Positions 779 to 33,250 of a DNA stretch of 64,000 nt are shown here, piece by piece. This stretch comes from Okamejei kenojei (taxonomy: Eukaryota). The notes beneath the pieces were generated by a model that ran no database searches, was not told the DNA's origin, and saw nothing but the letters and a program-made list of their open reading frames with translations. The stretch is taken from assembly GCA_035221665.1 (NCBI GenBank), contig CM069146.1:44702001-44766000 (forward strand), in the 5' to 3' direction. The position numbers and the translations under genes are program-made. The first letter of the stretch is position 1, and each line of letters opens with the position of its first letter.

Positions 779-890
779 TGCAGATGCTGGTTTACACCAA
801 AGAGTCTCGACCTGAAACATCACCCATTCCTTCGCTCCAGAGATGCTGCCTGGCCCGCTGAGTTACTCCAGCAATTTGTGTCTATCTTGG
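779..890 (+). mobile_element. Penelope-like pLTR remnant (partial hammerhead motif) with a short inverted 5' piece
   Basis: gtctcgacctgaaacatcacccattcc...agatgctgcc...gagttactccagc matches the pLTR seen next to the GIY-YIG ORF at 30475-30700. Confidence 0.75.
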
Positions 891-913
891 ACAGCTGGAT
901 TTTGTACTTGCAA

Positions 914-1270
914 CCCAGGTCGAAATTCCCATAGAAACCAGTAGAAACCTTCTACTGGTTTCAGGATCCTAGTGGTTTCTATGGGAATTTCCAGTGGTTC
1001 AATATATGATTCCATTAGAAACCAGTAGATCCAACTGGAATGAAGACCAGAAGAAGCCAATAGAAACCAGTAGATTCTATTGGTTTTAAGAGGGGTATAA
1101 AATTCCAAAGTCAAACCAGTAGAAACCATTAGAAACCAGTACAGTGTCATGGTTTCAAGTAGGGAGTCAAACCTGTAGAAAACAGTAGAAACCTGTAGAG
1201 TCTACTGGTTTGAAATGGTGTGTTGCATACGAAGTTAAACCAGTAGAAAAACCAGTGAAGACCACTACAA
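914..1270. repeat. Subterminal repeat array (AAACCAGTAGAAACC-like motif, direct and inverted) of the CACTA element
   Basis: More than 10 variants of aaaccagtag / ctactggttt; gaaattcccatagaaacca (~922) is inverted as tggtttctatgggaatttc (~973-991). Confidence 0.85.
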
Positions 1271-1800
1271 TTTTGCATGTAAAAAAGAAAGAAATACATA
1301 AGAAATAAAAACAGGACTTTTATGCATATAATTTGCATAAATTATGATATACAGTCCAAATAATAATTATGCTATGTTTAGATTTGTAGAGTTTGTTTAT
1401 CTGTTTGTGTCATTCAAGATTGGTTTGGATCATTCCATGACGAGATCTGCAATAAAAAATGCTAAAACAGTACATTTGCCTACATAACGTGCACTTAATT
1501 AGTAATATGCACATTCATTAATTCCTAATTTGCATGACTGTTTCACATAATTCAAACATAAAATTACTCGATTTGACAATGAACACCTTCTTTTTACATA
1601 TAACAAACTTGAACAGGGATTTCTAGCCTATAAAGGACACTCAAATATAAAAAAACAATTAGTATTTGCATAATTAATTAGGAATATAAGTAAAAATGAG
1701 AGGAATAATATCAATTTGACTAGGCATTCATGTAGAGAACATAATGAACTATGTGTACACCAAATTTTGTTGCAATCGGACGATCAAACAGCCTAGATCT

Positions 1801-1951
1801 ATTTGCGTAAGTCAAAGGTGTTTTTTTTCGGTCCCTTTGGACTCGCTTAACCCTAAAAAGACTGGGGTATGGAGGCTGAAATACCCCAGTCTTTTTAGGG
1901 TTTAGCCGAGTCCAAAGGGACCGAAAAAAAAAACCTTCTACTTGCGCAAAT
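1801..1951. repeat. Long inverted repeat: ~70-bp arms, 10-nt loop
   Basis: 1801-1870 (atttgcgtaag...actggggtat) is the near-perfect reverse complement of 1881-1951 (ataccccagt...cttgcgcaaat); loop ggaggctgaa. Confidence 0.95.
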
Positions 1952-2382
1952 TTCGACTTAGACAGTACAATTAGTACATGTTTATGACCATATGGACAAG
2001 AATTTTTCTTCGACGTCGACATAGGTGAGGTTGACTGTACTAGCAAGTGTTTTTTTCGAGACATCAATATTTGCATTTAGCAACCAGAATGTTCCCCATC
2101 CTGCATCTAAGACAACATATCTTGAAAGAAACAACTTCAAAGAAGACCATTCCCAGTTGACTACACATCAAGACATATCATTCAGTGTGGCATCCTACCA
2201 AACAGTCATTGAATTCAGTTTAAAAAAAATGTTTCAAAGATCCTCTAACTTTGAAAATTCCTGAGTAGGCAGAATGGATGTAAATTTCATTTTCAGTTTA
2301 TTCTACATCCACAATTCGCATGCCAATACAGTAATGTCCCTTGGTAATCAATAAATGTTTCCATTCTCTACATGCAGAGAGT

Positions 2383-4989
2383 TCAGTTCAGGGCCACATA
2401 ATTTGGAAAGGCAGCAATGTACAGGATGCCATCCACATTCATTGACATACAATTACCCATGGCTTCTTCAGCACGGATAGCAACTATCTCTGCATATCCT
2501 GTACAGACCTTAAGATGTGACAATTTAGAATTTGATTCGTCATCTCTAAATGTTACTTCCTCTTGAAGAACTAAGCACTTTACAATCATTATACACTCGT
2601 CATCAATGAGAGGATGCTGAGTAATTCACCCACTTTACCATCAGCAAATGCCACAAGTCTGTTATTTCGAGTCATTGCCTCAGTCCTATAACCTGCAGTA
2701 CAAAACAACATTACCATCTTTTCTAAGTCTGTTGTAAACAAGAACTGAGTTGTCTTCATTTAAAACATAACCAATAGCAGAAAGAGCATCTCTCTCTTGA
2801 GGTGTGCAATACCGAGAGCAGCCTGATCCGAGAATGTGCACACCATGCATGCCATAATTTCTTTTCTATTGATGTTTAATATCTTTGCTGTAAAGGCCTT
2901 TACACGGGGTGAGATGTACTGATGTCAATGATAATGGCAACATTTGTAATGTAAGGAATTTTTGAACTACCTGCATGATGATACCACGGTTTCCTTGGAG
3001 TTGCCGTTTTATACGCCAGTTAGCAGCTTCAAATGAAAAACATGAATGTGTCCAAAGAGGACCCCACAATCGTACACTTTTTGATAAATGTGTTAGGGAG
3101 TGGATGTTGAAAGTCATCGCACCTGACCCATACAGTAATTCACAGCGACACACAAAATGAAACATGAGAATATCACTTCTTTGTAAATCAAATACTGATA
3201 CTGACTTTTGTAAAAGGAGGAAAGAAGCTTCAACAAGAATGATAAGATGTTCCCAATACACTTTAGGTAAAATACCCTTCAAACATGGCACACTGTAGAA
3301 TATTAACCAGGTGTACCACTCTGAAGCTTTCCAATATTTTCTCTCAGAAATCGGCCTTGGCGCTCTTGCAATAACACTAGGGGGCTTAATAGCCTTCATT
3401 CTATTGCTGATTATTGATACCAATCTTTGAGAACCAATGTAAAATGGGTTGACTGCTTCTGATGAAAACCATAGTTCTAAAAGCTGTCTGGCAACTCCTA
3501 GTAACAAACAGTGCATGAAATCAGGGGGAAATCCCCAACATATTGGAAAATGATGAAGATTAATGAGTGCACTTGGACCCTTCACCCCCCTTACAGTACG
3601 ATTTTCTTGAAATGACTGAATCATATCATTTAACATTTCATCATCAGTTCTGTCAGTAAAATCACAAACATCAACTGGATATTTGATCACTCTATCTATT
3701 ATCTTACCAGGATGGTAACATAAAACCACAACCACTATACCCATTGAACCTAATTGTATTTTGCATTGCAGATCGAGCAGGTGCAACTGCACAACAACAA
3801 AGTCCAAATAATTTACTACAAATGATCGCATCACCCCTTTTCCGAGACACTCCGGATTCTGATAATTTATTAGCCTCGCTGGTAAATTTTCCAAAAATAC
3901 TTGCATTTTTAGGCTCAACTTTCCCAAACCATACGCCAGCCAGTATCAAGTTCTCATACCTGAGTTTGGGTGGCAATTATTGATCATTAAATAAATTGGC
4001 CAAAGTGAGTACTTTGATGAATTAAAACTGGAATCCCATCAGAATTAAATGAGTATGAAAAATTATAATTATTGCCCAAAAGTGCATCATCATCTGCCAT
4101 CTTCTTATACATTTCTCCATCAAAAATATCTTCAATATTACCGTTCATATTGCTTGTGGCGGGTAATCTCGGTATGTGAGGTGAGGTGTAATATCTGCCC
4201 TCTCAAAGAGAGATTGAACCTGTGAGGACAAGTTGGCTGTCACAAAAAAAATCACTGTGACTGAGATCGAAACTACACATGCAGTTCTACATTGTGGACA
4301 GGATACAGGTATGTTCTCATCACTTACAGAATTAAAAGATCTTACAAATACTAAAACAAGAAAGACAGTAGAAGTGAAAACTAAGCTGAATGATATTGTT
4401 ACAAAAAAATATGTCTAAGGATAGATTTTGTTGACTGAAAGATGAATCTGCCAAAGAGAAGATTTAAGAGTTCCAAGAGATGACACACAGCTGTAGCTGA
4501 CAGACAGTGCCTCATCACAAATGACAACACCATTAGCAATGCTTCTGCTTTGGAAACATTTGATCCTTCAAAACAGAGGGTAATTCAGTGTCTCATCAAA
4601 GTCAACATGATCACTGTCATCCTCCTGCTCCGACTCGTCATCAGATAAATTAGAAGAATATTCTGGATTATCCCTATCTGCATCTTCTTCATATTCACTG
4701 TCACTTTCGCTATTACCTTCATGAACAGTGAAACTATCCTCTTGTTCGTGGCAAATTGAGGATGATCGTTACAGGCTACAACTTCAATATTACTATCCTC
4801 TCCACTTGACTCAGTTGAATGAGACCAAGTATGACAGTCTGCTGCCGTCTCTGAGTCTGCTGCTGTCTCTTGATCTACAAAATATACGTTTGCTCGCCTC
4901 CGTCGCCATTTGGTAGCTGGTGGAATGGTGTCGTTGCTGTCTGGTTCCAGGTAGACTTTCAGTCGTTTTCTACCATCCTTCACACTCAT
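2383..4989 (-). pseudogene. EnSpm/CACTA-type transposase, intronless, broken by frameshifts (~870 codons)
   Basis: Collinear pieces: MSVKDGRKRLKVYLEP (ATG 4989), LLMVLSFVMRHCLS, CPQC, DIFDGEMY..FNSDG..SLWPIY, LILAGVWFG, APAR..FNGYSGCG, PPDFMHCLLLG, RAPRPISERKYWKASEW, MTFNIHSLTHL..WGPLWTHSCFSFE, ending AFPNYVALN* at 2383. Confidence 0.9.
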
Positions 4990-6437: not shown

Positions 6438-7146
6438 TGGGCCTGTCCCACCAGCATGCGACTGCGTGCGGTGAGCGCGACCTAACGTGGTCGCTTGAGC
6501 CGTCCGGCCCCGCAGGGCCGGTCCCACTTTGATCGCCGGAGCCGTATGGGGTTGTGCGGAGCTGGTCCCGATATCGCGCGGGGCTCCGAAAAACTGACTG
6601 TGTTCAAAAATTCCGCACAGCAACGGCCTGCTGGCCCGCAGCCGCCTCGATGCATTACGCACCGCCTCGCATCGTGCCTCCATGACCCTCTCTATATGTG
6701 CCTCCGTGGCCCTCTGTGTGCCTCCGTGACCCTCTCTATATGTGCCTCCGTGGCCCTCTCTGTGTGCCTCCGTGGCCCTCTCTGTGTGCCTCCGTGGCCC
6801 TCTCTGTGTGCCTCCGTGGCCCTCTCTGTGTGCCTCCGTGGCCCTCTCTGTGTGCCTCCAGTGGCCCCTCTCTGGTGTGCCTCCGTCCCTCCTGTCCCCT
6901 CTGTTCTTGCGAAACTTACCACAGACTTTCGCTCCAACTTCGCGCCCACTTTGCGTCAGACTCACCCGACTGGCCTTTGCAGCCCCCGCTGCCAGTTTGG
7001 TCGCGCTCTCAGCCGCATGTCAGGCCGCACGCCTGGTTGGGACCGGCACCTGTAACGGAGATCAGACTCGACCCCGCACGACCCCCGCTTCCAGTATGGT
7101 CGCGCTTGCCGGCATTTCAGGTTCGCAGGCTCGTGGACAGGCCGCT
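6438..7146. mobile_element. PIF/Harbinger-type non-autonomous element (MITE) containing a minisatellite
   Basis: TTA then TGGGCCTGTCCCAC at 6438; degenerate reverse-complement termini at ~7033-7050 and ~7133-7146; the terminus resembles the MITEs at 59367 and 62102. Confidence 0.6.
6674..6890. repeat. 22-bp minisatellite (tgtgtgcctccgtggccctctc), about 9-10 copies
   Basis: Units start at 6761, 6783, 6805, 6827 and 6849, with variant units on both sides. Confidence 0.95.
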
Positions 7147-10100
7147 TAACAAATGCAGCACAACACAATCAAAGAACAAGGAACAACAGGACACTGCAGA
7201 TGCTGGAGCCTTGAGTAAAAAAGTCGGTTGCAGGAATTCCAGCAAATGTCAGGACAGCATTTGCGGTCAATAGTATAGAGCGGGGGTGGCTTTGGGTTTT
7301 GGGTTTGGCCTTCTTCCCTTCAGACTCTTTCAGTTCCCCTGAAGGACCAGACTCTGTGTAAATTTAGATTTGCAAAGGGAGGGGCGGTAGCTCGAAGCGA
7401 GCGAAAGATGTGTAGAATGGGCGGAGAGGAATTCAATTGAGAGAAGGAAAATCAAAGGGAACGGCAGCGGGACGGACCCAGGACACGAGAAAAGGAGGAG
7501 AGGGGGGGAGTGTTGAGTTGGGTGAGTAGGAAGATTTGAGGGTGTGAGGGGAGGTGGCGTGGCTTAGAGGGTGCGAATGGAGAATCAGGGGAGGGTGGGC
7601 GGGTGGAGGCGTACCCAACTTGCCGAGCGTAAGTGGAGGGGAAGCTCATTTATATGCCCCTTGTACTGTTTATCAATTAAATTGCATGTGTGCTCTCGCC
7701 TGTTAATTACAGCCAATTTAATAGGTCCCCCCCCACCCCCCCCCCCCCCACCCACCCCAAAATTTTTGGTGGGGGAGTGTGTCCGGGGGGGGTGTGATAT
7801 AAATGGGGTCACATTCTGCTAGTGGCAGGAATTTATAGAACATGCTTTGGCTACTTACCTCCCCCCCCCCCCCCCCCCCCCTCAATCGGTGTGGATGCAA
7901 TGTATTTGTCCAACGTTTCTTCGCATTCCCTAATTAGCACACGGTGCACTATGTTCACCCCTCCCCCCCCTCCTTATGATGCAGAACTGATGTGATTTTC
8001 AATGACTGCCTAGAGTTACGCAAAATATAGTTAAGCCATGAATTACTTTGCCCCCACCCCCCACTTTGGACGAAACGTACCCGACCGGCCAAACATCCGT
8101 TGTAGAGCAGACTTTTAAAGCATTCTTGGATATGTTGGAAAAGATACAAGGAAAATTGAAACTAAAAAAAGATTTTAAAAATAAGATGCCACGAGTTAAT
8201 ATTATTTTCAGCAAATGCTTTAAAGAGGTGTTGTCAATCTCTCTGAAAAAACGTTTGAAGAGGACACAAACACAATTATGCAGCGCTGTGGTCACTGCGA
8301 TCAAACTGAGGCAGTTGAGTGTTGTAAACTGTTCAGTGACTCAAAACTGGATTTGCAAGATAGATTACTCTAATGACAATTCTTTGAGTTAATACTACAC
8401 AGCAGTAGTTTGTACTTCATTAATTAAGTCGTGGTGTTTTTAAACAAAACATCATCAAACCACAGCCAAGCAAAAACAATAAATAAATATATAAATAAAA
8501 AGAACCTTTTACAAAATCATGTACACCCCAAATTTAGAATTACCAAGTCTGAGGAGGAAAGATTTATCCCACTCATTGGAAAATTGGTAAAATTTTCCTA
8601 TTTCCTGAAAGATGCACATTTTTGCCAGCAACCTCTAACATAGTCACAGACAATTATAGTCCATATCTTTCTTCACAGATTTTCACAGAATCCATTGATT
8701 TTGTCTAATATCCTGTCACTGTGGTTGTGTTGGGACAATTATTTACCAAGGAGCATAGCCAAAGCAGGTTACTTTACTGGCTGCCTGCAAAGTCCATTAC
8801 TCGTTGCCGAGTAACCGTGAAGCTGACAAAGAGTGTCCCCCTCAATCACAGGAGTAGCTTTTCACATAACAGTTGCCTGCTACACATCTTCCCGTCTCTG
8901 GGAGTCATGGACATAAAAATGCACATCACCCGCACTCCTTTTAGAGCACTTTAAATTTTCTTATGACACACAATCTTATTTGCCCTGGTCAACAATGAAA
9001 GCTTGTAATTGGAATTCTATGTGTAACCCTTTTCAGAGGATTTGAATTAAGTTGGAATGCTTTGAGTACTTTTATTTACAAAGATGTAAGAAAAAGTCTC
9101 AAAAAGCGGTAATAAACTGAACCTTTCAAAGGTGAGTAATAGAACAATAATATTAAATGTTGAACAGAGCAATTTCACAACTAATATTTTTGTTTCAACT
9201 CTACTCACAAATTTTCCAATTATCCATTCTCATTTTAAAGAACTAAATCTTCCAATCATGACGCCCCCAATTTTAAATCATTTAAGACTGACATGTGATT
9301 TGCAGAAATATAATCCAAATTGTGGGAAGAAATATATATATTTATTTCCTGAATGCATACAATAAATGGCACCTCTGTCAATACAAACCCATTTTTTTTT
9401 GATAAAACAGAGGATGTATATGCAAAGATGACACGAAGTGCTGGAGCTTGGCTCAGCGAGTCTCCGGCAGGCATCTCTGGGAAAGCCATGGGTTATAGGT
9501 TAGATTTCTGCGTCGGACCCTTTTGTAGAGACCAGAGTTATAACCAGTAACTGCAGTGCCTTGTTATCTACTCTTGTATTAAGCTTGTACTCTTTTCACA
9601 TTTTGACTAAGAAAGAGATAGCTTCAGAAGCTCATTTTTCGACATGCCATTCACCTCAAAAAAATGAGTTTCTGGTGCATCAATCATAGGCATATTAAAA
9701 TTAGCTACTTGGCTGGACTGCACTCATTGAAAATGATGAGTGGAAAAATCAAAAAGCGCGAAAATTATCCGAACAGTCTGCATTACGCCTTTCTCTCTCA
9801 CAGCAGATTTTGCAAGAAGAAAGGCTTCAAACTCATTATTTGTTTTGTATAATGTAAGAGATAGACAACAAAAAACACTGGAGTATACATCTGTTTTAAA
9901 CGCGCTGTACAGTTTGTGTAATTTCTCTCAATGTTCCAGTCCGGATTCCGAAGCGCGAATGAAGATGAATTTCACATTACAAGAACTTTCCAAAGCAGGA
10001 AACGCAGGTTTTTAAACCTTTTGTCTGGCCATCACTAGTTCCATTCTTTAATCTCTCAGCTTTTCCCGAAATCTTTTTCCCCCTTCTTTCGTTTTTTAAT

Positions 10101-11211: not shown

Positions 11212-11335
11212 TGGAAGGAACTGCCGATATGTTTAAGTCTGAAAGATGTTGTCTCGATCTGAATACGCACCATTCTTTCTCTACATAGATTGCTGCCCGT
11301 CCTGCTGAGTTACTCCAGCATTTTTGTGATCTAAC
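11212..11335 (+). mobile_element. Degenerate Penelope-like pLTR remnant
   Basis: gtctgaaagatgttgtctcgatctgaatacgcacc...gctgagttactccagcattttt. Confidence 0.6.
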
Positions 11336-12289
11336 ATATTTTATCCTTGCCTAGTCCCCATTTAATGCATGCACCTTCGATAACTTTAAGTGTGAACACA
11401 CCCTCACCTTAATGTAATCGTCACCAATTTCAGTGATCTTAGATATAAGTCTGACAATCTGATTTATAAAAAAAAAAAATTAAAAAAACACATATCACAT
11501 AGAAACAAGACTTTTGTTCTCCAGTGTTTGAATGTACCCACTAAGTTACGCCAGACAATTTGTGGTTCAAATTGTTTAGTATTTGTTTTGAAACAACAGG
11601 ACATGAACAAGTGCGATTACTCACAACTTGAAGTCTGGTTCATAAATTACTCACACTTGGACATCACATTGACATAGACTGAATTCTTCACCCGATTTAC
11701 ATCATCGCATTACACTCCAACCCAAACGCCATTATTAGCGACGATCTTAGTACATACACTTATATAATTCCTGGAATGCACAAACATATTTTCTGTTTGG
11801 AACCCATTGCTACATTGAATAATTCATACGTTTTGTTAGCAAAAATATAGTTTGCCAATCCATTCATGCAATTCTACCAGCGCTCTGACAAAGAAGAAAT
11901 TATTCATCTTTTTTGGATTAAATAAATGAATTATTCACGTGCACTACGCCTATCTCTCCTTATAAACACTTGTTCCTTGTAAATGAATGATGAAGAGAAC
12001 TGTGGGGACTTGGAGTTCGAAACTGAGCAAATGGCGATCGTTCAATCATTTAACTAATTTTTCTTTAATGAATACTCACACACGTATGCTATAAATTGAA
12101 ACAGAGTTTGTGGAATATCCAAGATCAGTACAGTGTCGGAAACGGTGCAGGGATCGAAGGGCCAAATGGCCTCCTGCTGCACTAGTTGTCTATGTTTCAC
12201 GGCAGGGCTACTGTAAGGCGTCAAACAGTGCCAATTCTAAACGGGGCATCTCAGATTAGATTGTTTGCAGGGGGGGGGGATGTTGGTTT

Positions 12290-12530
12290 TAAACCAAAGA
12301 TATATACAAAAGAGCCGGAGTACTCACGGGGACAGGAGCATATCCGCTGGAAGAGAAAGGATGGTTGACGTTTCAAGTGAGACCCTTCTTCAGACCAAAG
12401 ATACTAGCTCCTCTAGTTATCTTTGCTTCAGACAGTTAGTGAAAAGTGAGAAACACGAGAGGATATAGATGGTGATATAGGAAGAGGTAAAGGACAATGA
12501 TGCGCGTGCGATCCGAATGATATGTACAAA
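12290..12530 (-). mobile_element. Penelope-like pLTR remnant with intact hammerhead core (12367-12393)
   Basis: Minus strand reads CTGAAGA AGGGTCTCACTT GAAAC GTC. Confidence 0.7.
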
Positions 12531-12539
12531 TATGTTTTT

Positions 12540-13244: not shown

Positions 13245-13610
13245 GCAATATTGATTTCTCTAAATTCAAATAACCCTTACATTTCCTCCCTCCCCCCTCC
13301 CCACTCCACCATAGTTGTACAAGTTCCACTGTTCGCATCCTTGTATCTTTTTGTTATCACGTCTTCCCCAGTTTAACAATGGGCCATTATGGGCTCCATC
13401 CTTCCTTGGTCATCTGTTGCCGTCCCTGCTTTGTTTTGGCCTTTTTTTCCCTCCAGTACCCTCCCCTTTACTCTCAGTCTGAAGAAGGGTCCTGACCCAA
13501 AACATCACCCATCCTTTTTCTCCAGAGATACTGCCTGACCCACTAAGCTACTCCAGCACTTTGTGCCTATCTTTGGTGTTTACCTACATCTACAGTTCCT
13601 TTCTGCACAC
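13245..13610 (+). mobile_element. Penelope-like element 3' end and pLTR
   Basis: NIDFSKFK* (end of the GIY-YIG ORF), pyrimidine tract, then CTGAAGAAGGGTCCTGACCCAAAACATC at 13479 (CpG-decayed hammerhead). Confidence 0.75.
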
Positions 13611-16715: not shown

Positions 16716-16812
16716 TAGAAGATGGGTCTCAACCTGAAACGTCAACCCATTCCTTCTCTCCAGAGATGCTGCCTGTCTCACTGAGTTACTCCAGTTTTGT
16801 GTGTCTATCTTC
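16716..16812 (+). mobile_element. Penelope-like pLTR remnant
   Basis: tagaagatgggtctcaacctgaaacgtcaacccattcc...gagttactccag. Confidence 0.75.
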
Positions 16813-16954
16813 ACTTTTGTTTAGATTGTTTGTTTTCAAGCAACAAATTCTTTCCCACTAAATTTATATTTATTACTTCAATGTAAAGAATCTTAGTGCA
16901 CACAGCAAGGCTGTGAAGTGCAGTAGATAGCCAAATATCATTGCCATCAAGAAG

Positions 16955-17520
16955 CAGAAAACGGTATGAACATTGCATTCTTCAATTTCAAGTAATACCA
17001 CCCTACCCCATTTCCCTTTTTATCCCCATCTCCGTCCCTCCCACCGATATCCTTCCCTCTAGCTTTACATTTCCCTCCTCTTCTCTCCTTATCTGACGCC
17101 CTTTTGTCTCCTTTATCATTGATTCCGCCTGTCATGGACTTCATCAACTTCACCACCAATTTTCTTCCTGCACTCAAATTTACTTGGACCATCTCCGACA
17201 CCTCAACCCCCCCCCCCCCCCCCCCCCCCCAACCTCCCACAGTCTCCATCACAAGAAATAGACTATTGACTGACGTCTATTACAACCCCACTGACTCCCA
17301 CCACTATCTCAGCTACATTTCTACCCATCCGACCAATTCCTCCTTTTACCCCGCATCTGCGCCCAAGATGAGGTGTTCCATACTAGAACATCCGAGATGT
17401 CCTCATTCTTTAGAGAATGGAGGTTCCACTCTCCCATCATAGATGAGGCCCCCCACTCGTGTTTCCTCGGTACCCCGTAGCTCCGCCCTTGCTCCCCCTC
17501 CCCCCGGTTGCAACAGAGAC
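16955..17520 (+). mobile_element. Penelope-like element fragments (GIY-YIG end plus RT C-terminal region)
   Basis: NGMNIAFFNFK*, then DFINFTTNFLPALKFTWTISDTS...VSITRNRLLTDVYYNPTDSHHYLSYISTHP, a PLE RT motif 6/7-thumb region. Confidence 0.85.
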
Positions 17521-17842: not shown

Positions 17843-17958
17843 AGCCTCCTTAAAGCGCATCCCTCCTGCAAACACTGCAGAAAAAGCACTCACATTTAAT
17901 TTGCAATGAGAGTGATTTTTATGCAGTGTTTGCAGGAGGGATGCGCTTTAAGGAGGCT
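17843..17958. repeat. Hairpin: 54-bp arms with 3 mismatches, 8-nt loop
   Basis: 17843-17896 versus the reverse complement of 17905-17958; the outer 37 bp are perfect. Confidence 0.95.
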
Positions 17959-18433: not shown

Positions 18434-19635
18434 AATTTAACAAAAGAGGAAGCTGAAAAAGCTGCAGTGAAGGGAGAAAAGTGCATTTCAATTGGATAGG
18501 ATTCAAATAGATAGAGGTAATTAAATAATTGGCAGTGGTCAAATTGGAACAGTCCATTCTTAAAGGGTGCAAAGTTACTGAATTCACTTCACTATGGAAA
18601 TAGCAGCAGCACAATTGTTCAAGCCTCTTTAGATATAGAAATATATCAGATGATGAAATTGCCAGAATCCTGTTCAAAAATGGGGGGAGAAGGATAAATC
18701 ATAACTGAAGCATCAGCAGGGAAGCTTCTAGATACACAAGAGCAATATTAATTGTCACTTGTAAAAACTATACTTTATATATAGCAGTCACTAGGAAGAG
18801 GTTAAAGGTAAATTATTTTACTAAATTGATTGAGTTATTTGATTAACTGGTAGATTGTAAGGCTTCACACAGGCTTCCAATAGCGCTTAGTAAATCACCA
18901 CATTATAGATTTCTTAACACAATTGAAGGCACTGGGATTTAAGGAACAATGGAGCTGAACACAATGTAGAAAGGAAAAGAAAAGAGTCATGGAGACACAA
19001 AAGACTGCATTAGCTGAAATCTGGGCAACACAAACCGCTGGAAGAACTCAGCAGGTCAAACAGTTTATTTGGAGGTGAATGAATAGTCGATTATTTAGGT
19101 TGATCACGATTTAATCCTGCATCAGGACTGAGAAAGAGAGAAACTAGCTAATATATAGAAGGATAGAGGGAGGCTGGTACGGAGATTGGTATACGATGGT
19201 TGGAACAAGATGAAGCAGGGATTATGGGCAGATGCAAGCAGGTTGGGGAAGGTAAAGCAAGGACTAAGGGATAAGAAACTCAAGTAGATTGTGGCTGATG
19301 AGAGAAGGGGTAGAAAAGGTGAACAAAAGGAGAGAGACCCTGGGTGGACTAGTGGTCTAGGAACAGTGTTACAGTGTGGGACGTCTGTCAGGATTCCGTT
19401 TGTTTCATCCTGCAGATGTGGAAAGCTCAACTGCTGCCAAGTGTCGGCTGTGGACCGGCAGGTTAGTGGGCTGGTTCCAGGACAATCTGACCCCATGTAT
19501 TTCTTGCACCTGCTCTTGCAATATTCCAGTGCCTGGATACAGGACTTCTATGTGTCATGTTCGGAAATAAATTCATTGGCTGAAAATCCATCAATGCCTT
19601 GAACAGAGAACTTGATCAACAGCAGTTTCTAAATG

Positions 19636-20890: not shown

Positions 20891-20980
20891 CTGAAGGGTC
20901 TCGACCCAAAACGTCACCCATTCCTTCTTTCCAGAGATGCTGCCTGACCCGCTGAGCTACTCCAGCATTGTGTGTCTACC
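20891..20980 (+). mobile_element. Penelope-like pLTR remnant
   Basis: ctgaagggtctcgacccaaaacgtcacccattcc...ctccagcattgtgtgtctacc. Confidence 0.8.
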
Positions 20981-21329
20981 GTAGAAATTTGTTAACAGCT
21001 GCTGGTGCTGAACTCTCATCAATATTTGTGACTCCATATTCCACCCTGCTTCCAAAAAAAAGGGTGTTTTTCTCTCCCCATTTTCCAGGTGTTAAGGACC
21101 AGTATTTCTGGTCCGTTACTAATTGCTCTTCAAAAGGTTGCTGTGAGCCGCCTTTCCCAGCTGTTGCAGTCCTTCTGGTGAAAGCACATCTATGTTTTTT
21201 TTTTAAGACAGCAAATTTGAGGATCTTGACCCAGCCATGAAGTAACAGACATATAGTTGCAATCAGGACGGTGTGCCTGTAATTGATGATGTTTCAATAT
21301 GCCTGCTGCCGGATCCTTTTTTCATGTTA

Positions 21330-22152: not shown

Positions 22153-22194
22153 AATCACACTCCTGGCTTGAAACAGTGGGGGAGCGTCTGTCGA

Positions 22195-22295
22195 GACAAA
22201 GGTAAACAAAAATGCTGGAGAAACTCAGCGGGTGCAGCAGCATCTATGGAGCGAAGGAAATAGGCAATGTTTCAGGCCGAAACCCGTCTTCAGAC
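22195..22295 (-). mobile_element. Penelope-like pLTR remnant with intact hammerhead core (22266-22293)
   Basis: Minus strand CTGAAGA CGGGTTTCGGCCT GAAAC ATT. Confidence 0.8.
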
Positions 22296-24147
22296 AAAGG
22301 GATGGTTTCAGGTCAGGACCCACATCCCACCAAGCTCCTCAAGCAGTTTGTGTTTTGCTCCAGATTTCTTCTTCTGCCGTCGCTTGTACTTCTGGCTTCT
22401 GACTTGCAGATGGTGGAAGAGCCTTGAAGAATGAGTAGATGAATCACTCATTCCAAGGTACTGTGCCTCTAGCTTGCTTCTAGCTACAAGAGTAACTTGG
22501 CTGACCAGTTGAGTTCCTGGTCACTGCTGAACCCACCGCATCCCCTCAACAGATTGTTGATAGTGGAGACCTCAGCAGTGGCAATGCCACCAACTGTGAA
22601 GGTTAGAAACAAGGAACTGTAAGTGCTGGTTCATGAAGGCAGGGTGCTGGAGTAACTCAGCAGATCATACAGCACAGGAGAACATGGTTAGGTGGTATTT
22701 CAGGTTGGTCGCTTTGAATTTTTTTCTCAAATGCAGGAAGAAATCTTTTCAGTAAAGCATATTAGGCAATAGTTTATAAAGTGGGTTCCAGCCAGGGAAA
22801 GGGAAAAGTGCTCATAGGAGGGTAGTTGGTAGAGATGCAAGTAAATGTTACCAACATACCACCTTGAGCACCAGAAGCAGTTCCCAGAGGTATTGCAGCA
22901 GTATATTACAAGCATCTGCTATCTGCAATGGGAGCTACTGTTGAAATTATTGATTTTCATGGCCAGGTGTCTTCTAGCAAGTTTAGGTGTTGTCCCAGAA
23001 ACATGCGCTGGGCATCAGTGGAACATTGCTGACAGTCAAAAGCAGGAAAATCAAAATGGGAGTGGGACACAGAATAAAAGAGGTCAACAACCATATGCTC
23101 AGGGTCATGCCTGGCTTTAACTTTCTGACTCATGAGATGAGAATGCTGGCTCTGAGCAACAGCTGACACTATAAACAGGCGATAAACAAACCACAGCTAT
23201 AATCCAAAACACACCCAAAATAATTCCAAGACATCCATTTAAAATATTAAAAGACATGCCAACTTCACCATCTCAATATCTTTATCATGTCATTCAGAGC
23301 ATTCTGTATGCAGTCACTTTGTTTTTTTTATGACTTTGTTTTTTTTTAAATATACAGTCTTAATGAAGAAAGAAAAGACAATTGGTCAGAATAATGACTA
23401 AATTACTACAGATAATTTAGACTATCAATTTCTCCTTTAGCTTTTCAATTACCAAAGGACCTGACAGACTTCAGGACCTTCTAAGATCAAAAAGTTCTCC
23501 ACTTCAAACTAAATGTTGCCTATCCTTAAATCTTTTGCTTTACAACTATTTGAAGATGAAGAAACGTGCATTGTTTTTTTTGGCAACTCAACTTCGACCA
23601 AGTTTTAAAGATAATAATTACTTGAGATCAAAGATTATTTATATTTTTTTACAATCCGAATATATCACAAATGCTCAAAGGGTGTATGAGATAAATTGTG
23701 CAAATAGCATGCGTGATGTTTTTGAGTGAAATGTTGCTTTTTCTCTAGCGAGAGATATTGCATCAAGAACACATTGAGCTGCAGGGAATATTCCACTGGG
23801 TACCAAAACAACACGTCAGAATTGTGAATCACCCAAGAAATGACAGCTTCCACCAGAAGAAAAGCCACGGGGCAAAATAATATTAAAAGTAAATGTTATG
23901 AAGATAGAATTTAAATCATTGATCCAGCAATTTAGATGCAGAGCTGAATAAATAATAATGCATTTCGCCGTTAAAGTTATTCAAAGACCTTATATCCAAG
24001 TACACAGCTGACCAATAAAGAATAATTTACAGATGTTGATGAAGTTTATGGTCTGTGCCAGATTGCAAACTTACATGTTACACTGGCTCCTGGGAAACCA
24101 GAGTTTGCTCTGCTAGATATCACCCGTCCTTATTATTGAAATCAGTT

Positions 24148-25170
24148 CATAAGTGACAGGAGGAGATATAGGCCATTCGGCCCATCAAGTCTACTCCTCT
24201 ATTCAATCATGGTCGATCTATCTCTCCCTCCTGGTTTGGCCGAGGGGATTGAAGGCTTTGTGGCCAGGTTTGCAGATGATACGAAAATAGGTGGAGGGGC
24301 AGGGAGCGTAGAGAAAGCAGGGACTCTGCAGCAGGACTTGGACAGGTTGGGAGAGTGGGCAGAGAAGTGGCAGATGGAACATAGTGTCGCAAAGTGTGGA
24401 GTCATGCATTTTGGTAGTAGGAATAAAGGCGTAGTCTATTTTCTAAATGGGGAGAGAACCCAGAGTTCAGAGGTGCAAAGGGACATGGAACTGCTGGTGC
24501 AGGATTTCCAAAAAGTTAATCTGCAAATTTAATCGGTAGTAAAGAAGGCAAACGCAATGCTAGCATTTATTTCGAGACGGTTTGTATACAAAAACAGGGA
24601 TGTAATGCTGAGGCTCTATCAGGCGCTGGTCAAGCCGCATTTGGAATATTGAGAGCAATTTTGGGCACCGTATCTGAGGAAGGATGTGCTGGGAGGTTAA
24701 CAAGAATGATCCCTGGAATGAGTAGGTTAACATATGACGAGCATTTGAAGGAACTGGGCCTGTACTCACTGGAGCTTAGAAGAATGAAGTGGGACCTCAT
24801 TGAAATGTACAGCATAGTGAAAGGCTTGGTTAGAGTGGATGTGGAGAGGATGTTTTCACTAGGAGAGTCTAGGACTAGAGGTCGTAGCCTCAGAAATGAA
24901 GGACGTTCTTTTAGGAAGGCGATGAGGAGGAATTTCTTTAGTCAGAAGGTGGTGAATCTGCGGAATTCTTTGCCACAGGTTGTGGAGGCAGTCAGTGGAT
25001 ATATTTAAGGCATAGTTAGATAGATTCTTGATTAGTACAGGTGTCAGACGTTACAGGGAGAGGGCAGGAGAATAGGGTTAGGAGGGAGAGATAGATCAGC
25101 CATGATTGAATGGCAGAGTAGACTCGATGGGCCTAATGACCTAATTGTGCTCCTATCACATGATCTTATG
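24148..25170 (+). mobile_element. 5'-truncated CR1 LINE (RT from the FADD motif to the 3' end) preceded by an inverted copy of a CR1 3' tail (24148-24232)
   Basis: ARFADDTKIGG..LQQDLDRLGEWAEKWQM; 24148-24232 is the reverse complement of ~25080-25165. Confidence 0.9.
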
Positions 25171-25865: not shown

Positions 25866-26060
25866 CCCGGGTTCTCCGGTTTCCTCCCACTCGCCAAAGA
25901 CGTATGGGTTTGTAGGTTAATTGGGATTTAAAAAATAAAAAAAAACTGTAAATTGTCCCTACTGTGGAGGATGGTGTTGGTGTGCGGGGATTGCCGCTCG
26001 ACGCAGGCACAGTGGGCCGAGGGGCCTGTTTTAGCACTGTATCTCTAAGCTAAACTAAAC
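25866..26060 (+). mobile_element. V-SINE 3' part
   Basis: ctccggtttcctcccac V-domain; tail ctaagctaaactaaac. Confidence 0.8.
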
Positions 26061-26125
26061 CAATTCAGTGTTTGACCTGGTTGAGACGCTGACTCCTGCA
26101 AAATCAGCGACATTTCAGTTTTTAA

Positions 26126-26260
26126 TTCAGAAGATGAATCCCGACCCGAAACGTTACCCATCTTTTTCTCCAGAGAGGCTGCCTGACCTGCTGAGTTACT
26201 CCAGCATTTTGTGTCTATGTTTGGCATAAACTAGCATCTTCAGTTCGTTGTTTCTACATT
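26126..26260 (+). mobile_element. Penelope-like pLTR remnant
   Basis: cagaagatgaatcccgacccgaaacgttacccatc...gagttactccagc. Confidence 0.75.
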
Positions 26261-26402
26261 CTGCCTCCAGTGTTGCTACACCACTCAGACTGCTCAACGA
26301 TAAATGTTCTGTGAATGAAAATAGCTTTTTCAATTGATCTACAATGTCTATCTTCTGGTTTGTTAAAAATAATACAAGATTTAATATATTTGTTATCATC
26401 TT

Positions 26403-29400
26403 TGGCAGATTGCAAATTACCTATTAACCTGTAACAATGCAAGGTAAATGGAAGGTGTCATTTTCCACAATAAACTGTGCACCACTCAACATATTGAACT
26501 ATTTGTACAATTTGACAGCCTAGAAATCTGTTGTGGCTTCCACTTCTAGTTCAAGGCCCGAGTAATTTTTTAAGATAGTACACTTCCATTGAAAATACAA
26601 AATTGTTGCTATGTGAGAAAGGGCTAGAATGATGGCTTCAATGCATGAAAGAGGCACACAGTATTAGGAAGCAACCATGTTCTAAGGAAATCACATCAGT
26701 TTATATTTGCCACAGAAGGCGGTTGATGAACCACTATCTGCGCAAAGGACTTGGTTCTTAAATATAAAAGCAAGTTGAAAGCAAAAATTATTAACCGAAC
26801 ACTACAAGAGTCATGATTCATCGTCAAAACTACCCTGCTCTCATAACAAAGATGCAGTCTCTAACAAAGTCAGTGCGGCGTAATGGGCCAACAGAGAATG
26901 CTGCTGCCTCTCGGCTCCAGAGACCCGTGTTCAATTCTGGCTTTGAGTGTGTCTGTGTGAAGTTACACGTGCTCTCTATACGTTTCAGTTTCTTTACACA
27001 TCTCAGAATCATAGAGACATACAGCACAGAAACAGGCCCTTCAGCCCAAGCCGACCAATCTTCGACACTAGTCCCATCTGCCTGCATTTGGCACTTATCC
27101 CTCTAAATCTATCCTACCCATATACCTGTCAAAATACTTCTTAAACATTACATTAGTAGTACCTGCCTCAACTATCTCCTCCGGCAGCTAATTCCATACA
27201 CCCGCCTCACTATGTGTGATAAAGTTACCCCTCGGGTTCCTCGTTACCTTAAAAGCTGAGATGTGTTAGTGCGTTAATTGGCTATTGTAAATTGACCCTT
27301 GGTGTGGGTAAATAACATGGAATCACAATGGAATTGAAGGCCCTGTGAGATAAGTTACAATGGATGGGAGAAGAAGGGGGCAGGAGCGGAATGTGATTCA
27401 TCACATGGAAGTAATATACAAATGCTACACATTGCATGATATCGTAAATGCACTTGAGGTAATTTATAAAGGTCAACTTCTGAAAAAGATAAATTCAAAT
27501 TTAATGAGCACATTCAATCTGCAGAAAGCACAATTTGGCCTAAGCTTTGCAATATCCTTCTTCAATTTTGCATCACATTATTAGGCGTAACATAGCCATC
27601 AACTTTCATTCAAGGTACTTGCAAAATGAGAAAGCGTTTAATTGCTAAAACCTGTAATCATATTAGAAAACTAACATTTGTAAATTAATGCAAGCTATCA
27701 CACTCCCAAATTTCTTGTACAAGAATCAACCACAAAGAATTTGCCTGTCCTTTACAAAGTCAAACAGAGAACGATGAGGCAATCAATTAAAATAAAAATT
27801 AATTTTATATACAAACACGCTTTTAGTTCCAATTGCTATTATCCTTCGATAACGCTCATTCAAATTAGTATCCAGAGTACATTCACAGTCTCATACAGTA
27901 AACAATGTTACTGCCTGTTCTGTACATGAAGCTAAACACATGAATTCAATTATATAGTCTTCTTGGGATTTAACATTTAAATCCCTTCAACATATAAATA
28001 ATGTATTATAACAACTTCTCACACGTAATAACACTTCAAATACAACAGCGATGTCAACAAATGGTTTCAAAATGAAATGTATTACCATAAATGAATAAGT
28101 GGCTTTCAAATAAGCAGTTCAGAATCTTCTGGTGAATAACAGTAGAATGAAGATTAACTTATTAAGGAATTAGTGTTTAAGAAGGAACTGCAGATGCTGG
28201 AAAATCAAAGGTAGACAAATGTGCTGGAGAAACTCAGCAGGTGTGACAGCATCTATGGAGCGAAGGAAATAGGCAACGTTTCAGGTCAAAACCCTTCTTC
28301 AGACTGATGTAGGGGTGGGGGTGGGGGAGAAGAAATTAGAAAGGAAGAGGAGGAGCCAGAGGGCTGAGGGATAGCTGAGAAGGGGAGGAGACAGCGAGGG
28401 CTACCGGAAATTGGAGAAGTCAATGTTCAAGCCGCTGGGGTGCAAACTACCCAAGCGGAATATGAGGTGCTGCTCCGCCAATTTCCGGTGGTGCTCACTC
28501 TGGCCCAGCACAGAAAGGTCGGATTCGGAATGGGAGGGGGAGTTGAAGTGCTGAGCCACCGGGAGATCAGGTTGGTTAATGCGGACCGAGCAGACGTGTT
28601 TCGGCGAAACGATTTTGCCAAGCCTACGCTTGGTCTCACCGATGTAGATAAGCTGACATCTAGAGAAGCAGATGCAATAGATGAGGTTGGAGGAGGTGGC
28701 AGATTGCAAATTACCTATTAACCTGTAACAATGCAAGGTAAATGGAAGGTGTCATTTTCCACAATAAACTGTGCACCACTCAACATATTGAACTATTTGT
28801 ACAATTTGACAGCCTAGAAATCTGTTGTGGCTTCCACTTCTAGTTCAAGGCCCGAGTAATTTTTTAAGATAGTACACTTCCATTGAAAATACAAAATTGT
28901 TGCTATGTGAGAAAGGGCTAGAATGATGGCTTCAATGCATGAAAGAGGCACACAGTATTAGGAAGCAACCATGTTCTAAGGAAATCACATCAGTTTATAT
29001 TTGCCACAGAAGGCGGTTGATGAACCACTATCTGCGCAAAGGACTTTGTTCTTAAATATAAAGCAAGTTGAAAAGCAAAATTAATAACCGAACACTACAA
29101 GAGTCATGATTCATCGTCAAAACTACCCTGCTCTCATAACAAAGATGCAGTCTCTAACAAAGTCAGTGCGGCGTAATGGGCCAACAGAGAATGCTGCTGC
29201 CTCTCGGCTCCAGAGACCCGTGTTCAATTCTGGCTTTGAGTGTGTCTGTGTGAAGTTACACGTGCTCTCTATACGTTTCAGTTTCTTTACACATCTCAGA
29301 ATCATAGAGACATACAGCACAGAAACAGGCCCTTCAGCCCAAGCCGACCAATCTATCGACACTAGTCCCATCTGCCTGCATTTGGCACTTATCCCTCTAA

Positions 29401-30992
29401 ATCTATCCTACCCATATACCTGTCAAAATACTTCTTAAACATTACATTAGTAGTACCTGCCTCAACTATCTCCTCCGGCAGCTAATTCCATACACCCGCC
29501 TCACTATGTGTGATAAAGTTACCCCTCGGGTTCCTCGTTACCTTAAAAGCTGAGATGTGTTAGTGCGTTAATTGGCTATTGTAAATTGACCCTTGGTGTG
29601 GGTAAATAACATGGAATCACAATGGAATTGAAGGCCCTGTGAGATAAGTTACAATGGATGGGAGAAGAAGGGGGCAGGAGCGGAATGTGATTCATCACAT
29701 GGAAGTAATATACAAATGCTACACATTGCATGATATCGTAAATGCACTTGAGGTAATTTATAAAGGTCAACTTCTGAAAAAGATAAATTCAAATTTAATG
29801 AGCACATTCAATCTGCAGAAAGCACAATTTGCCTAAGCTTTGCAATAATCCTTCTTCAATTTTGCATCACATTATTAGGCGTAACATAGCCATCAACTTT
29901 CATTCAAGGTACTTGCAAAATGAGAAAGCGTTTAATTGCTAAAACCTGTAATCATATTAGAAAACTAACATTTGTAAATTAATGCAAGCTATCACACTCC
30001 CAAATTTCTTGTACAAGAATCAACCACAAAGAATTTGCCTGTCCTTTACAAAGTCAAACAGAGAACGATTGAGGCAATCAATTAAAATAAAAATTAATTT
30101 TATATACAAACACGCTTTTAGTTCCAATTGCTATTATCCTTCGATAACGCTCATTCAAATTAGTATCCAGAGTACATTCACAGTCTCATACAGTAAACAA
30201 TGTTACTGCCTGTTCTGTACATGAAGCTAAACACATGAATTCAATTATATAGTCTTCTTGGGATTTAACATTTAAATCCCTTCAACATATAAATAATGTA
30301 TTATAACAACTTCTCTCACGTAATAACACTTCAAATACAACAGCGATGTCAACAAATGGTTTCAAAATGAAATGTATTACCATAAATGAATAAGTGGCTT
30401 TCAAATAAGCAGTTCAGAATCTTCTGGTGAATAACAGTAGAATGAAGATTAACTTATTAAGGAATTAGTGTTTAAGAAGGAACTGCAGATGCTGGAAAAT
30501 CAAAGGTAGACAAATGTGCTGGAGAAACTCAGCAGGTGTGACAGCATCTATGGAGCGAAGGAAATAGGCAACGTTTCAGGTCAAAACCCTTCTTCAGACT
30601 GATGTAGGGGTGGGGGTGGGGAGAAGAAATTAGAAAGGAAGAGGAGGAGCCAGAGGGCTGAGGGATAGCTGAGAAGGGGAGGAGACAGCGAGGGCTACCG
30701 GAAATTGGAGAAGTCAATGTTCAAGCCGCTGGGGTGCAAACTACCCAAGCGGAATATGAGGTGCTGCTCCGCCAATTTCCGGTGGTGCTCACTCTGGCCC
30801 AGCACAGAAAGGTCGGATTCGGAATGGGAGGGGGAGTTGAAGTGCTGAGCCACCGGGAGATCAGGTTGGTTAATGCGGACCGAGCAGACGTGTTTCGGCG
30901 AAACGATTTTGCCAAGCCTACGCTTGGTCTCACCGATGTAGATAAGCTGACATCTAGAGAAGCAGATGCAATAGATGAGGTTGGAGGAGGTG
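26403..30992. repeat. Direct tandem duplication, unit ~2294 bp (26403-28698 and 28697-30992)
   Basis: Both units start tggcagattgcaaattacc and end gaggttggaggaggtg; near-identical ORFs recur in both (27282/29576, 28440/30734). Confidence 0.97.
28180..28698 (-). mobile_element. Penelope-like element (GIY-YIG end plus pLTR, intact hammerhead core 28275-28302), truncated by the duplication junction
   Basis: SSNLIYCICFSRCQLIYIGETKRRLG...NIDFSNFR*; minus strand CTGAAGA AGGGTTTTGACCT GAAAC GTT. Confidence 0.9.
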
Positions 30993-31560
30993 CAGGTGAA
31001 CCTCTGTCGCACCTGGAACGACTGCTTGGGTCCTTGAATGGAGTTGAGGGATAAGGTAAAGCGACAAGTGTAGCTTCTCTTGCGGTTGCAAGGGAAAGTG
31101 CCCGGGAAGGGGGTGGTGCGGGAGGGAAGGAAAGAATTGACCAGGGAGTTATGGAGGGAGCGGTCTTTGCGAGTGGTGGGGTCACGTTGGAGGTGGCCCT
31201 CCGGTTCTTCCTCGACCGGAGAACCAACCAATCCCCATCTACAGATGCTCTCCTCCGCCTAGCGGCTAGTTCTCACCCATAATTTTTTGTTTGACTCCTC
31301 CCATTTCCCCCAAATACAAGGTGTAGCTCTGAGCATGCGCATGGGCCCCAGCTATGCCTGCCTCTTTGTAGGGCACCAATTTCCGGTAGCCCTTGCTGTC
31401 TCCTCCCCTTCTCAGCTCTCCCTCAGCCCTGGCTCCTCCTCTTCCTTTCTTCTCCCTGCCCCCCCCCCCCCCCACATCAGTCAGATGAAGACTTTCGACC
31501 TGAAATGTTGCCCATTTCCTTCACTCCATAGATGCTGAGTTTCTCCAGCACTTTTGTCTA
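30475..31560 (-). mobile_element. Penelope-like retroelement: GIY-YIG endonuclease region plus pLTR, with an inverted RT fragment and inverted pLTR
   Basis: ORF 30695..31231(-): PCNRKR..C...FTCTSSNLIYCI...IYIGET...HFN; plus-strand HFPQIQGVALSMRMGPSYACLFVG (RT); 31376-31560 is the reverse complement of ~30505-30708. Confidence 0.92.
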
Positions 31561-32404
31561 ATTTATTAAGGAACCAGAAATATAACTAACCTGCCTTATA
31601 CAGTTTTGTGATGCACACATGTTTAATTACCATCTCCAAAGTATCATGCATAAACTTAGCATTTATGTACTTCGGAAAATCTCCATTTAATTCCATTCAT
31701 AACTAATTTTGATGCCAGGGTTTCGGGTGGAAGACTTGTGTCATTCTGTGTATCAGAATTTCAAATAGATGTAGTGGCAACATCCAAAATACACACTTCA
31801 TGAATTATTATCTTCCACGACAAGGACCAAAACTATTTCTCAGCCATTCCACTGACGTATATGTAGAGAGTTTTCTCCATCAGGTAATAATTAGAACACA
31901 TTCCAATATCTCAGAAAACTTTTGTCAAATATGCAAAAGATAAAAACTCAATGATAATTTGTTCATAAATTTACATTCAAAATATGAATGTCACTCAGAA
32001 GAATGGATTTATCCTCCAGATATTTAGGCCGTAGGCGCTATCTAAAAGTGTGAATTATACGGGTACTGTGAGGTAAGGTTGAGAGGAATATCTACCAAGC
32101 CTTTTAACATCTTTTCTGTTAGTTGAAATGATTCCCAGCTATAACTGTTTAACTGTATATATGGACTGTATATGATCAAGGGCATATATGCTGCAGACTG
32201 TTTTTCAACATACTGAACTCCTTGCCTAAAACAACAACTTAACAACTTACTATACTCACTATAACTAAAAACACAGCCAACGGTAAAATAATTAAAACCA
32301 GAAAAGGAAGGGGTCAGAGTTGGAAGAACAGTTATCTCATGGGTTATGGGACAGGCAGAATTTTAAGAAACAGGATAGATTCAGGCAAGACAACATATAT
32401 TTAT

Positions 32405-32650
32405 AGGTTTAAGGTGAAGGGAGAAAAATATAATATTAATCTGAGGGGTAACTTTTTCATACAATGGGTGATGGGTGTATGGAACGAATGCTGGAGGAGG
32501 TCGTTGAGGCAGGGACTATTGTAATGTTTAAGAAACAATTAGACAGGCACATGGATGGGCCAAGTTTAAGTTGCGACTAATGCAGATGGGACATATTGGT
32601 CAGTGTGAGAAATTTGGGCCGAAGGGCCTGTTTCCTCGCTGAATGACTCT
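32405..32650 (+). mobile_element. Old CR1 3' fragment
   Basis: RFKVKGEKYNINLRGNFFIQWVMGVWNE and tail gggccgaagggcctgtttcc. Confidence 0.8.
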
Positions 32651-33166
32651 CTCTATGGCTCTTCAAGACCGTAACTGGTTATCAATGAACCATTCCAACA
32701 GTAGGGAGGTTCTGAAGGTTCGGCGAGGGACTGAGAGCACATTGGGTCTTCTTTGTTCACTGAGACTTGGTGCAAACATTTAGGACTGAAGTTCAGTGTT
32801 TTCAAATCTAAAAGCAGCACTTACCTAACGAAGACCACAACAATCTCCATTGCCACTCAGTGCTTCTCCCGGCCTCAACGAGGAAGAGCCCACACCTGTG
32901 CTCGGTGTTGCAACAGGTTGGCGCAAGGGTCACCGGCCACTCTGGGCGCAGCTGCTGCAACTTGCATTAAATGCAACGGGAAAGAACGGAAAACCCACCT
33001 GACTGACTCACGCACATAGCTGCACGAATAAGGTAAACAGCTCGTTACAAAGTGACGCGTACCGCCTGCTGCTTCTCAACGTAAACTACAAGGTTGTTAA
33101 AAAGAAATGTCTTTATTCACCAGAACTTCTCAACGCAAAGGTGATGATCGCTGCTAAATACATATT

Positions 33167-33250
33167 CTGAAGAAGGGTTCCGACCCCAAACGTCACCTAT
33201 TCTCTCCCTCCAGAGATGCTGCCTGCATCACCCGCATTTTGGATCTGTCT
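33167..33250 (+). mobile_element. Penelope-like pLTR remnant
   Basis: CTGAAGA AGGGTTCCGACCC CAAAC GTC; one core substitution (GAAA to CAAA). Confidence 0.8.

Follow-up and report, generated by a model that had tools for sequence, protein, structure and literature searches.

Minimal hammerhead ribozymes are known from the pseudo-long terminal repeats (pLTRs) of metazoan Penelope-like elements (PLEs), including Neptune elements of fishes (Cervera and de la Pena 2014, PMC4209133). These are type I motifs that lack loop 3 and have a palindromic 15.2-16.2 pair, an extra base before stem II and a G10.1-C11.1 pair, and they occur mostly as single dispersed motifs with some opposite-strand pairs. The single motifs are treated there as probably truncated PLEs, and the parts of that study considered here do not map their breakpoints. 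We find motifs of the same make and arrangement in Okamejei kenojei, starting from a 64,000-nucleotide (nt) stretch of its genome (the window: GCA_035221665.1, contig CM069146.1, positions 44,702,001 to 44,766,000, forward strand), for which a preliminary description had proposed that short pLTR-derived copies, here called stubs, spread as an independent RNA whose end is set by ribozyme processing. The motif in O. kenojei differs in having a stem I of 2 base pairs (bp), and a fixed 5′ start of the copies coincides with the 5′ strand of that stem. We conclude that the stubs are very probably by-products of PLE insertion with an end that the ribozyme does not set, and that a capped transcription start is a somewhat likely cause of the fixed 5′ end.

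The Anolis element PAc (Poseidon clade), studied in vitro (Frangieh et al. 2024, PMC11167929), starts reverse transcription at two internal sites that bound the tail, as the element described here appears to do, and it extends both DNA strands on an uncut RNA template with no reads at the hammerhead cut. The O. kenojei element has a Neptune-type linker and an ATG 162 nt after C3, the first C of the CUGANGA box, whereas the ATG of PAc lies in stem II; the main text on PAc reports neither a fixed genomic 5′ end nor a pairing of short with tailed arms. PLE insertions with inverted pLTRs and a one-sided tail of 30-40 bp (PMC8557442, PMC3846280) share the head-to-head arms, partial tandems and target duplications seen here, where many insertions consist of the pLTR alone and the one-sided tail has been counted. 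For such insertions PMC3846280 proposed self-priming on an antisense template, and in Chlamydomonas the short PLE insertions (median 128 bp) have been ascribed to truncation (PMC9977147). The non-LTR retrozymes of animals (bioRxiv 10.64898/2026.07.22.740005) are likewise non-coding, derived from PLE pLTRs and equipped with a type I hammerhead, but they are tandem, with at least two consecutive hammerhead units, whereas the copies here are dispersed and single or inverted. Full-length L1 insertions (PMC11702581) resemble the stubs in an extra G at the fixed 5′ end and microhomology at more truncated ends, although the enzyme class is different, the products in O. kenojei measure 95-135 nt and they show less of a G excess. 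In the literature outside subscription journals, Repbase notes and supplements, we found no report of 5′ ends fixed at the boundary of the hammerhead, nor of a short-plus-tail rule.

Short copies share a fixed 5′ start upstream of the cut

Positions are given relative to C3 (0), with the predicted cut between +27 and +28. We gap-aligned 144 copies of one young subfamily (family C, 3% divergence) to a long copy, 30 of them from an evenly spaced genome sample and 114 picked by a 43-mer; the rows include paired arms of single events and transposon-carried repeats, without effect on the picture. Among the 118 copies that reach +2, 58 start between -4 and +2, where the upstream background rate predicts 2.1, and 14 of 26 do so in the evenly spaced subset alone. 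This hot spot lies about 30 nt upstream of the predicted cut, and the copies keep the whole hammerhead core. The same start point recurs in subfamilies of 3-14% divergence with different upstream untranslated regions (UTRs). In the older of these the solo class is less certain, and according to a pyrimidine check unalignable low-complexity UTR may inflate their solo counts. For family C such an artefact, with upstream UTR present but unalignable, is rejected by the 3% divergence and the gapped alignment. Many copies begin almost exactly at the ribozyme, as the preliminary description held, far beyond chance, and their breakpoints are non-random along the pLTR.

At the cut itself, matched patterns counted genome-wide gave 294 starts (+28) against 300 at a control position (+25). 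True junctions were found at 19 of 30 loci at +28 and 12 of 30 at +25 (p=0.12), and many of the +28 loci are fold-backs. Only 2 of the 144 family-C copies start at +27 to +29, in a set that, being largely 43-mer-picked, under-samples starts at the cut. Copies starting at the cut make up at most about 1% of the family. With the core retained, the pile-up some 30 nt too early and no clear excess at the cut, the proposal that ribozyme processing sets the end is not supported.

Copies that carry the start of the open reading frame (ORF) number 37 (38 rows, one a duplicate alignment), and 25 of these reach +2. Six of the 25 start at the hot spot (p=5e-6), which places the hot spot on ORF-bearing RNA.

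Two 3′ ends and their pairing in inverted copies

Family-C copies end at about +90-95 or at about +126-130, and the interval of roughly 35 nt between these two ends is the PLE tail. Among the loci examined we found 151 head-to-head pairs, 125 of them classifiable, and 108 of the 125 combine one short arm with one tailed arm, where independence would give at most half. This pairing fits the PAc enzyme, which extends both strands from two tail-bounding sites on uncut RNA (PMC11167929). Some short stubs (L180, L128, L119) have inserted within further copies of their own PLE family.

The parent element

Long copies show what the module belongs to. They hold YLRYIDD and IYIGETKR in one frame, a reverse transcriptase (RT) followed by a C-terminal GIY-YIG endonuclease, and Pfam matches them to GIY-YIG (E=0.0013) and RVT_1 (E=0.038), neither of which reaches its curated cut-off. 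In the window, the module at 30570 runs on into a reading frame that holds a Cys linker and IYIGETKR, and longer copies add the RT core; the window's own 177-amino-acid ORF piece gave no Pfam match, and the endonuclease piece gave no match against the PDB. A near-full-length copy runs in the order UTR piece, hammerhead, tail, short leader, ATG at +162 and ORF. Of 30 loci retrieved through the 5′ part of the ORF, 17 have the plus-strand module directly in front of it, and the module also follows the stop codon in long 3′ copies. Features of endonuclease-bearing Penelope-like elements are present: a single RT plus GIY-YIG ORF, a module before and after it, and tailed and inverted copies. The structure of the long copies supports the Penelope pLTR origin that had been proposed.

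A Zn-finger-like CX2-5CxxC linker between RT and endonuclease is described for the Neptune clade, and for Nematis too (PMC8557442). The long copies have CNRKKCNTC and CNRKRCYTC at this place, and the window copy is without one Cys. Judging from the linker motif, the module is both the pLTR or 3′ end and the leader of what appears to be a Neptune-type PLE. A decayed PLE RT fragment (FTWTISD, DVYYNPTDSH) also lies at 16996-17442 (+) of the window, about 180 bp from the module at 16717.

The hammerhead motif

A hammerhead descriptor gave 28 matches in 864 kb, all within module matches, and none in 5 shuffles. The layout has CUGANGA, a stem II with G10.1-C11.1, GAAA and an NUH triplet, with a stem I of 2 bp and an ACGU palindrome, which supports the minimal type I assignment; this is a known ribozyme type and not a new ribozyme family. 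Both core boxes are kept in 93 of 197 copies spanning the hammerhead. In 12 hand-picked copies 95.8% of stem cells are paired, against 9-49% when the alignment is slid; covariation in these copies amounts to one two-sided change and is not significant, since 266 of 500 shuffles score equally high. The predicted minimum-energy folds of monomer and dimer differ from the catalytic fold, and an Rfam scan of the window found no hammerhead at E<=1. In 2017 Lunse et al. reportedly observed dimer cleavage. An HDV-like (hepatitis delta virus-like) ribozyme was considered and rejected, with no Rfam match in the window, no P3 or J1/4 GG on inspection and an L3-like stretch that differs among subfamilies.

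Four window copies, at 12367, 22266, 28275 and 30570, had been said to keep both boxes. They do, yet only three are independent because 28275 duplicates 30570, and only 12367 has a GUC triplet with an intact ACGU; the triplet of 28275 and 30570 is GUU, and in 22266 the 15.2-16.2 pair is broken. A GUU cleavage triplet and a UUCG loop II run throughout the subfamily of 28275 and 30570 (family B, about 9% diverged, with L033-L060), which suggests from the sequence a relaxed need for fast cleavage. The copies of a small cluster (cluster 33, 7 of 521 copies) lack both the GAAA box and the cleavage triplet owing to a shared 12-nt deletion between two ACC repeats, which may reflect recurrent slippage or a ribozyme-less sublineage.

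Module copies in the window and the genome

With a module profile built from 58 genomic copies, the window gave 19 matches, against none in each of 20 doublet shuffles of it. All 12 sites listed earlier carry the module, but they represent 10 insertions and not 12, because 28275 duplicates 30570 and because 30570 and 31481 are arms of one insertion; the other seven matches are at 9409, 19028, 22605, 56561, 56618, 58194 and 60264. The copies of the window are as follows.

800-899 (+): module starting at about +6, without the CUGA box (profile and inspection)
9409-9524 (-): old module starting at about +4, new to this analysis (profile)
11236-11327 (+): decayed module starting at the hot spot (about -3), short 3′ end (profile)
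12279-12396 (-): module starting at the hot spot with GG before TCTGA; both core boxes (12393-12371), ACGU and a GUC triplet
13475-13609 (+): tailed module whose upstream side runs into pyrimidine-rich 3′ UTR; GAAA box mutated
16717-16813 (+): module starting at about +1, short 3′ end (profile)
19028-19102 (-): old partial module, absent from the earlier list (profile)
20893-21009 (+): module with a damaged CUGA box (profile and inspection)
22197-22295 (-): family-B module starting at -2; both boxes (22293-22270), 15.2-16.2 pair broken
22605-22706 (-): old partial module, absent from the earlier list (profile)
26127-26254 (+): tailed module starting at about -1 (profile)
26403-30992 (no strand): tandem duplication with a 2.29-kb unit (26403-28698 and 28697-30992)
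28172-28700 (-): duplicate of the 30570 arm, with endonuclease 3′ end, UTR, hammerhead (28302-28279, GUU) and tail
30467-31190 (-): tailed arm of an inverted PLE insertion, with ORF 3′ end, UTR, hammerhead (30597-30574) and tail
31200-31375 (+): decayed RT-region fragment at the inversion junction, with the MGPSYACLFVG motif of long copies
31376-31563 (+): short-ended arm of the same inverted insertion (UTR and module)
33165-33255 (+): module starting at about -2, GAAA box mutated (profile)
56561-56730 (no strand): old head-to-head pair outside the range described earlier, with 56561-56638 minus and short-ended, 56618-56730 plus and tailed
58194-58265 (-): 3′ piece of the module without hammerhead; 11-bp target duplication at 58183 and 58266
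60264-60337 (-): old 3′ piece of the module (profile)

The inverted insertion is flanked by an 11-bp target duplication at 30454 and 31563. Its tailed arm holds the end of the ORF, with a CxxxxxxxC-type Zn linker, the GIY-YIG motif and a stop at 30695. The description of many copies as free of coding sequence therefore fails for 28275 and 30570, which run into the Zn-linker/GIY-YIG end of the ORF. The two 2.29-kb units, compared over their length, show 2288 identities, 3 mismatches and 9 gap columns, and the junction between them falls inside the PLE ORF fragment. The duplication is possibly recent or possibly an artefact of the assembly, the latter because several of the differences are single-base gaps.

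Across 80 evenly spaced (not random) 10-kb stretches of the 24 largest contigs of the 2.76-Gb assembly, 333 module matches make up about 4% of the sampled bases and extrapolate to about 1.1 million copies genome-wide (bootstrap 0.96-1.33 million). One 43-nt family-specific word alone occurs 33,438 times in the genome.

Stubs accompany the autonomous element

Clustering 521 module copies on about 100 nt, a coarse procedure of limited resolution, gave seven clusters of at least 27 copies. All seven hold solo, inverted and upstream-extended members, and six have endonuclease-linked members, so that each wave of the autonomous element brought its own stubs; secondary amplification of stubs may occur on a fine scale. 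No large short-only subfamily appeared among the clustered copies, which are dispersed with target-site duplications and are not tandem monomers, and independent amplification of either the SINE-like (short interspersed element-like) or the retrozyme-like kind is not borne out. Module copies are single or inverted, with no module array in the window and a few short head-to-tail runs elsewhere.

At C2:137651884-137652103, four pattern matches lie 63-64 bp apart with a purine replacing the cleavage-site C in each, possibly a small tandem array of the post-cleavage unit. At three loci (L155, L206, L214) a small terminal-inverted-repeat element carries an inverted PLE module pair, so some stubs have been copied by a DNA transposon. 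A CpG-rich stretch that follows the module in L155 and L206 was considered as a promoter and rejected, since it belongs to this DNA-transposon-like carrier.

What sets the 5′ end

In the mechanism we propose, transcription by RNA polymerase II would start at YCAGTCT, and the RT would prime at two internal sites 90-130 nt into the uncut RNA, as PAc does in vitro (PMC11167929), and run off the RNA 5′ end, likely the capped start. Stubs would thereby share a start 2-3 nt before the hammerhead core, and their 3′ end would fall at either of two set positions. One priming site per cut DNA strand would give inverted pairs, and read-through RNA, or a jump to the identical 3′ pLTR, may be the source of copies that extend further upstream. 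In the stubs the hammerhead would be a passenger and would at most remove the first 30 nt of the mRNA, putatively in a dimer or with protein help.

The bases next to the start point to a capped end. An extra G marks capped full-length L1, whose insertions can reach the capped RNA end (PMC11702581). In a sample of 99 solo copies with intact TCTGA, a G precedes 15 of the 18 that end at G(-2) (0.29 expected) and 7 of the 14 that end at A(-3) (p=0.054). Single or double Gs stand between the target duplication and the element at L193, L279, L281 and L283. Thirty unselected copies starting at -5 to +3 have target duplications of 10-25 bp, and added bases occur in 10 of the 12 that start at or before -2 and in 8 of the 18 that start later (p=0.058), the rest showing microhomology; added bases at early starts and microhomology at later ones is the pattern of L1 insertions that reach the capped end (PMC11702581). 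TATA-less transcription from inside the pLTR, which the proposed start would resemble, is described for the Penelope element of D. virilis (PMC2377424).

YCAGTCT itself is an initiator-like motif, which lends slight support.

Several observations weigh against a capped start. Genome-wide, the extra G before G(-2) is real but moderate (3271 G against 3442 C or T, or 0.49, and about 0.44 after removal of inverted and extended copies as judged from 60 inspected loci). The 15 of 18 include at least one missed inverted arm (L112), and several extra Gs sit within the target duplication (L261, L272, L284, L286). The starts are spread over 7 nt, so that +1 cannot be fixed, and only about three positions of the initiator match are free of the hammerhead. 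About half of the family-C copies run past the hot spot, and these longer copies require that upstream-initiated RNA or jumps be invoked. Among ORF-start-bearing copies the stop rate at the hot spot is lower (24% against 49% in family C, p=0.027), and 19 of the 25 run on upstream, so longer templates or jumps must be common. In the D. virilis element, finally, transcription starts about 120 nt upstream of the hammerhead, and the start is followed after 46 nt by a 75-nt intron whose end is at helix I (PMC2377424, PMC4209133); the O. kenojei element gives no evidence of an intron.

Those longer copies speak for a stall. The fixed point would then be a site of stalling or template exit on a longer RNA, caused by a bound element protein or a leader fold; about half of the copies pass it, 19 of the 25 ORF-start-bearing copies extend upstream, and the PAc protein does bind this region and assist its hammerhead (PMC11167929). 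We consider this unlikely, as the point stays fixed although the upstream UTRs differ among subfamilies, a stall predicts neither an extra G nor added bases, and in our model nothing would pair upstream of -3 once the 3′ strand is unwound. The same point could be read as a 3′ splice site (pyrimidine tract, CTRAC, YAG/TCTG), with spliced or intron-processed RNA as the template of the copies. Across all subfamilies nearly every extended copy retains YCAG, frequently preceded by CTGAC or CTAAC, and the D. virilis intron offers a precedent (PMC4209133). Against it, the sense strand is rich in pyrimidines along its whole length, no more than 2-7 nt separate the branch-like motif from the AG, and no shared first exon was found: in 12 of 30 copies the target duplication abuts the module or overlaps it, and the copies have no added bases in common. 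A donor-like site at the ATG is never joined to the module among the long loci examined, which show no spliced leader-to-module junction. Splicing is a quite improbable source of the start. Four sets of assembled contigs from RNA runs, three of which may be DNA, cover a long family-C copy with no pile-up of starts or ends, and among 15 listed of their 27 joints none falls at AG/TCTG; such contigs do not display RNA ends and leave the choice between these readings undecided.

Amplification independent of the full-length masters would place the cause in the stubs themselves. A SINE-like family with its own internal promoter could account for the excess of short over extended copies in older subfamilies (31 against 7 in the even sample's largest cluster); stubs in which the start site is retained could be transcribed, and non-autonomous PLE partners exist in Chlamydomonas (PMC8557442). 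We judge it improbable given that every large cluster mixes solo, inverted and extended copies, nearly all with endonuclease-linked members, and that no downstream flank was seen carried along with stubs except by the DNA transposon. An end set by hammerhead cleavage on a retrozyme-like RNA, as first suggested, is hardly credible. The motif is kept across subfamilies, and the nonsignificant surplus of true cut junctions would allow such a class at about 1% of the family, but the starts lie 30 nt before the cut, the counts at the cut match the control genome-wide and are near nil in family C (within the sampling limit given above), no tandem module array occurs in the window, and hammerhead mutants leave PAc insertion in vitro unchanged (PMC11167929). 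The retrozyme reading is largely refuted.

A wider version of the capped-start mechanism, which we regard as doubtful, would make the hammerhead-plus-tail module a retrovirus-like R region with strong-stop-like cDNAs that are integrated or transferred. A dimeric Penelope enzyme would prime on each of the cut DNA strands, using two sites within the capped leader of a single RNA; integrated cDNAs would give solo and inverted stubs, and those transferred to the identical 3′ pLTR would yield partial tandems and copies of greater length. The start site would leave no more of stem I than its 2 bp, and the hammerhead would serve as a dimer-gated decapping switch, triggerable in trans by stub transcripts.

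Other features of the window

Four Rfam matches in the window are all far below gathering scores, and three of them are explained by two long hairpins resembling miniature inverted-repeat transposable elements at 1801-1951 and 17843-17958 (59- and 54-nt arms). A 359-codon open frame at 2866-3945 (-) has a weak DUF4218 match (E=0.07) and is presumably a CACTA-like transposase remnant. RT remnants of long interspersed elements at 24140-25008 and 34890-36386 are, we assume, CR1-like, and a 22-bp minisatellite of 9.5 copies occupies 6674-6886.

Significance for Penelope-like elements

The element class and the ribozyme type are both known, and the interest of the locus lies in the large number of natural insertions with fixed ends that PLE reverse transcription has left behind. 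One PLE has been reconstituted in vitro so far. These insertions predict an RNA start at -2/-3 and two priming sites, one per strand, on an uncut template. If true, the R-region reading would account together for pLTR regeneration, the tail on one side and the inverted pLTRs. An estimated million natural insertions bear on pLTR regeneration, the one-sided tail, the inverted copies and the role of the hammerhead in PLEs.

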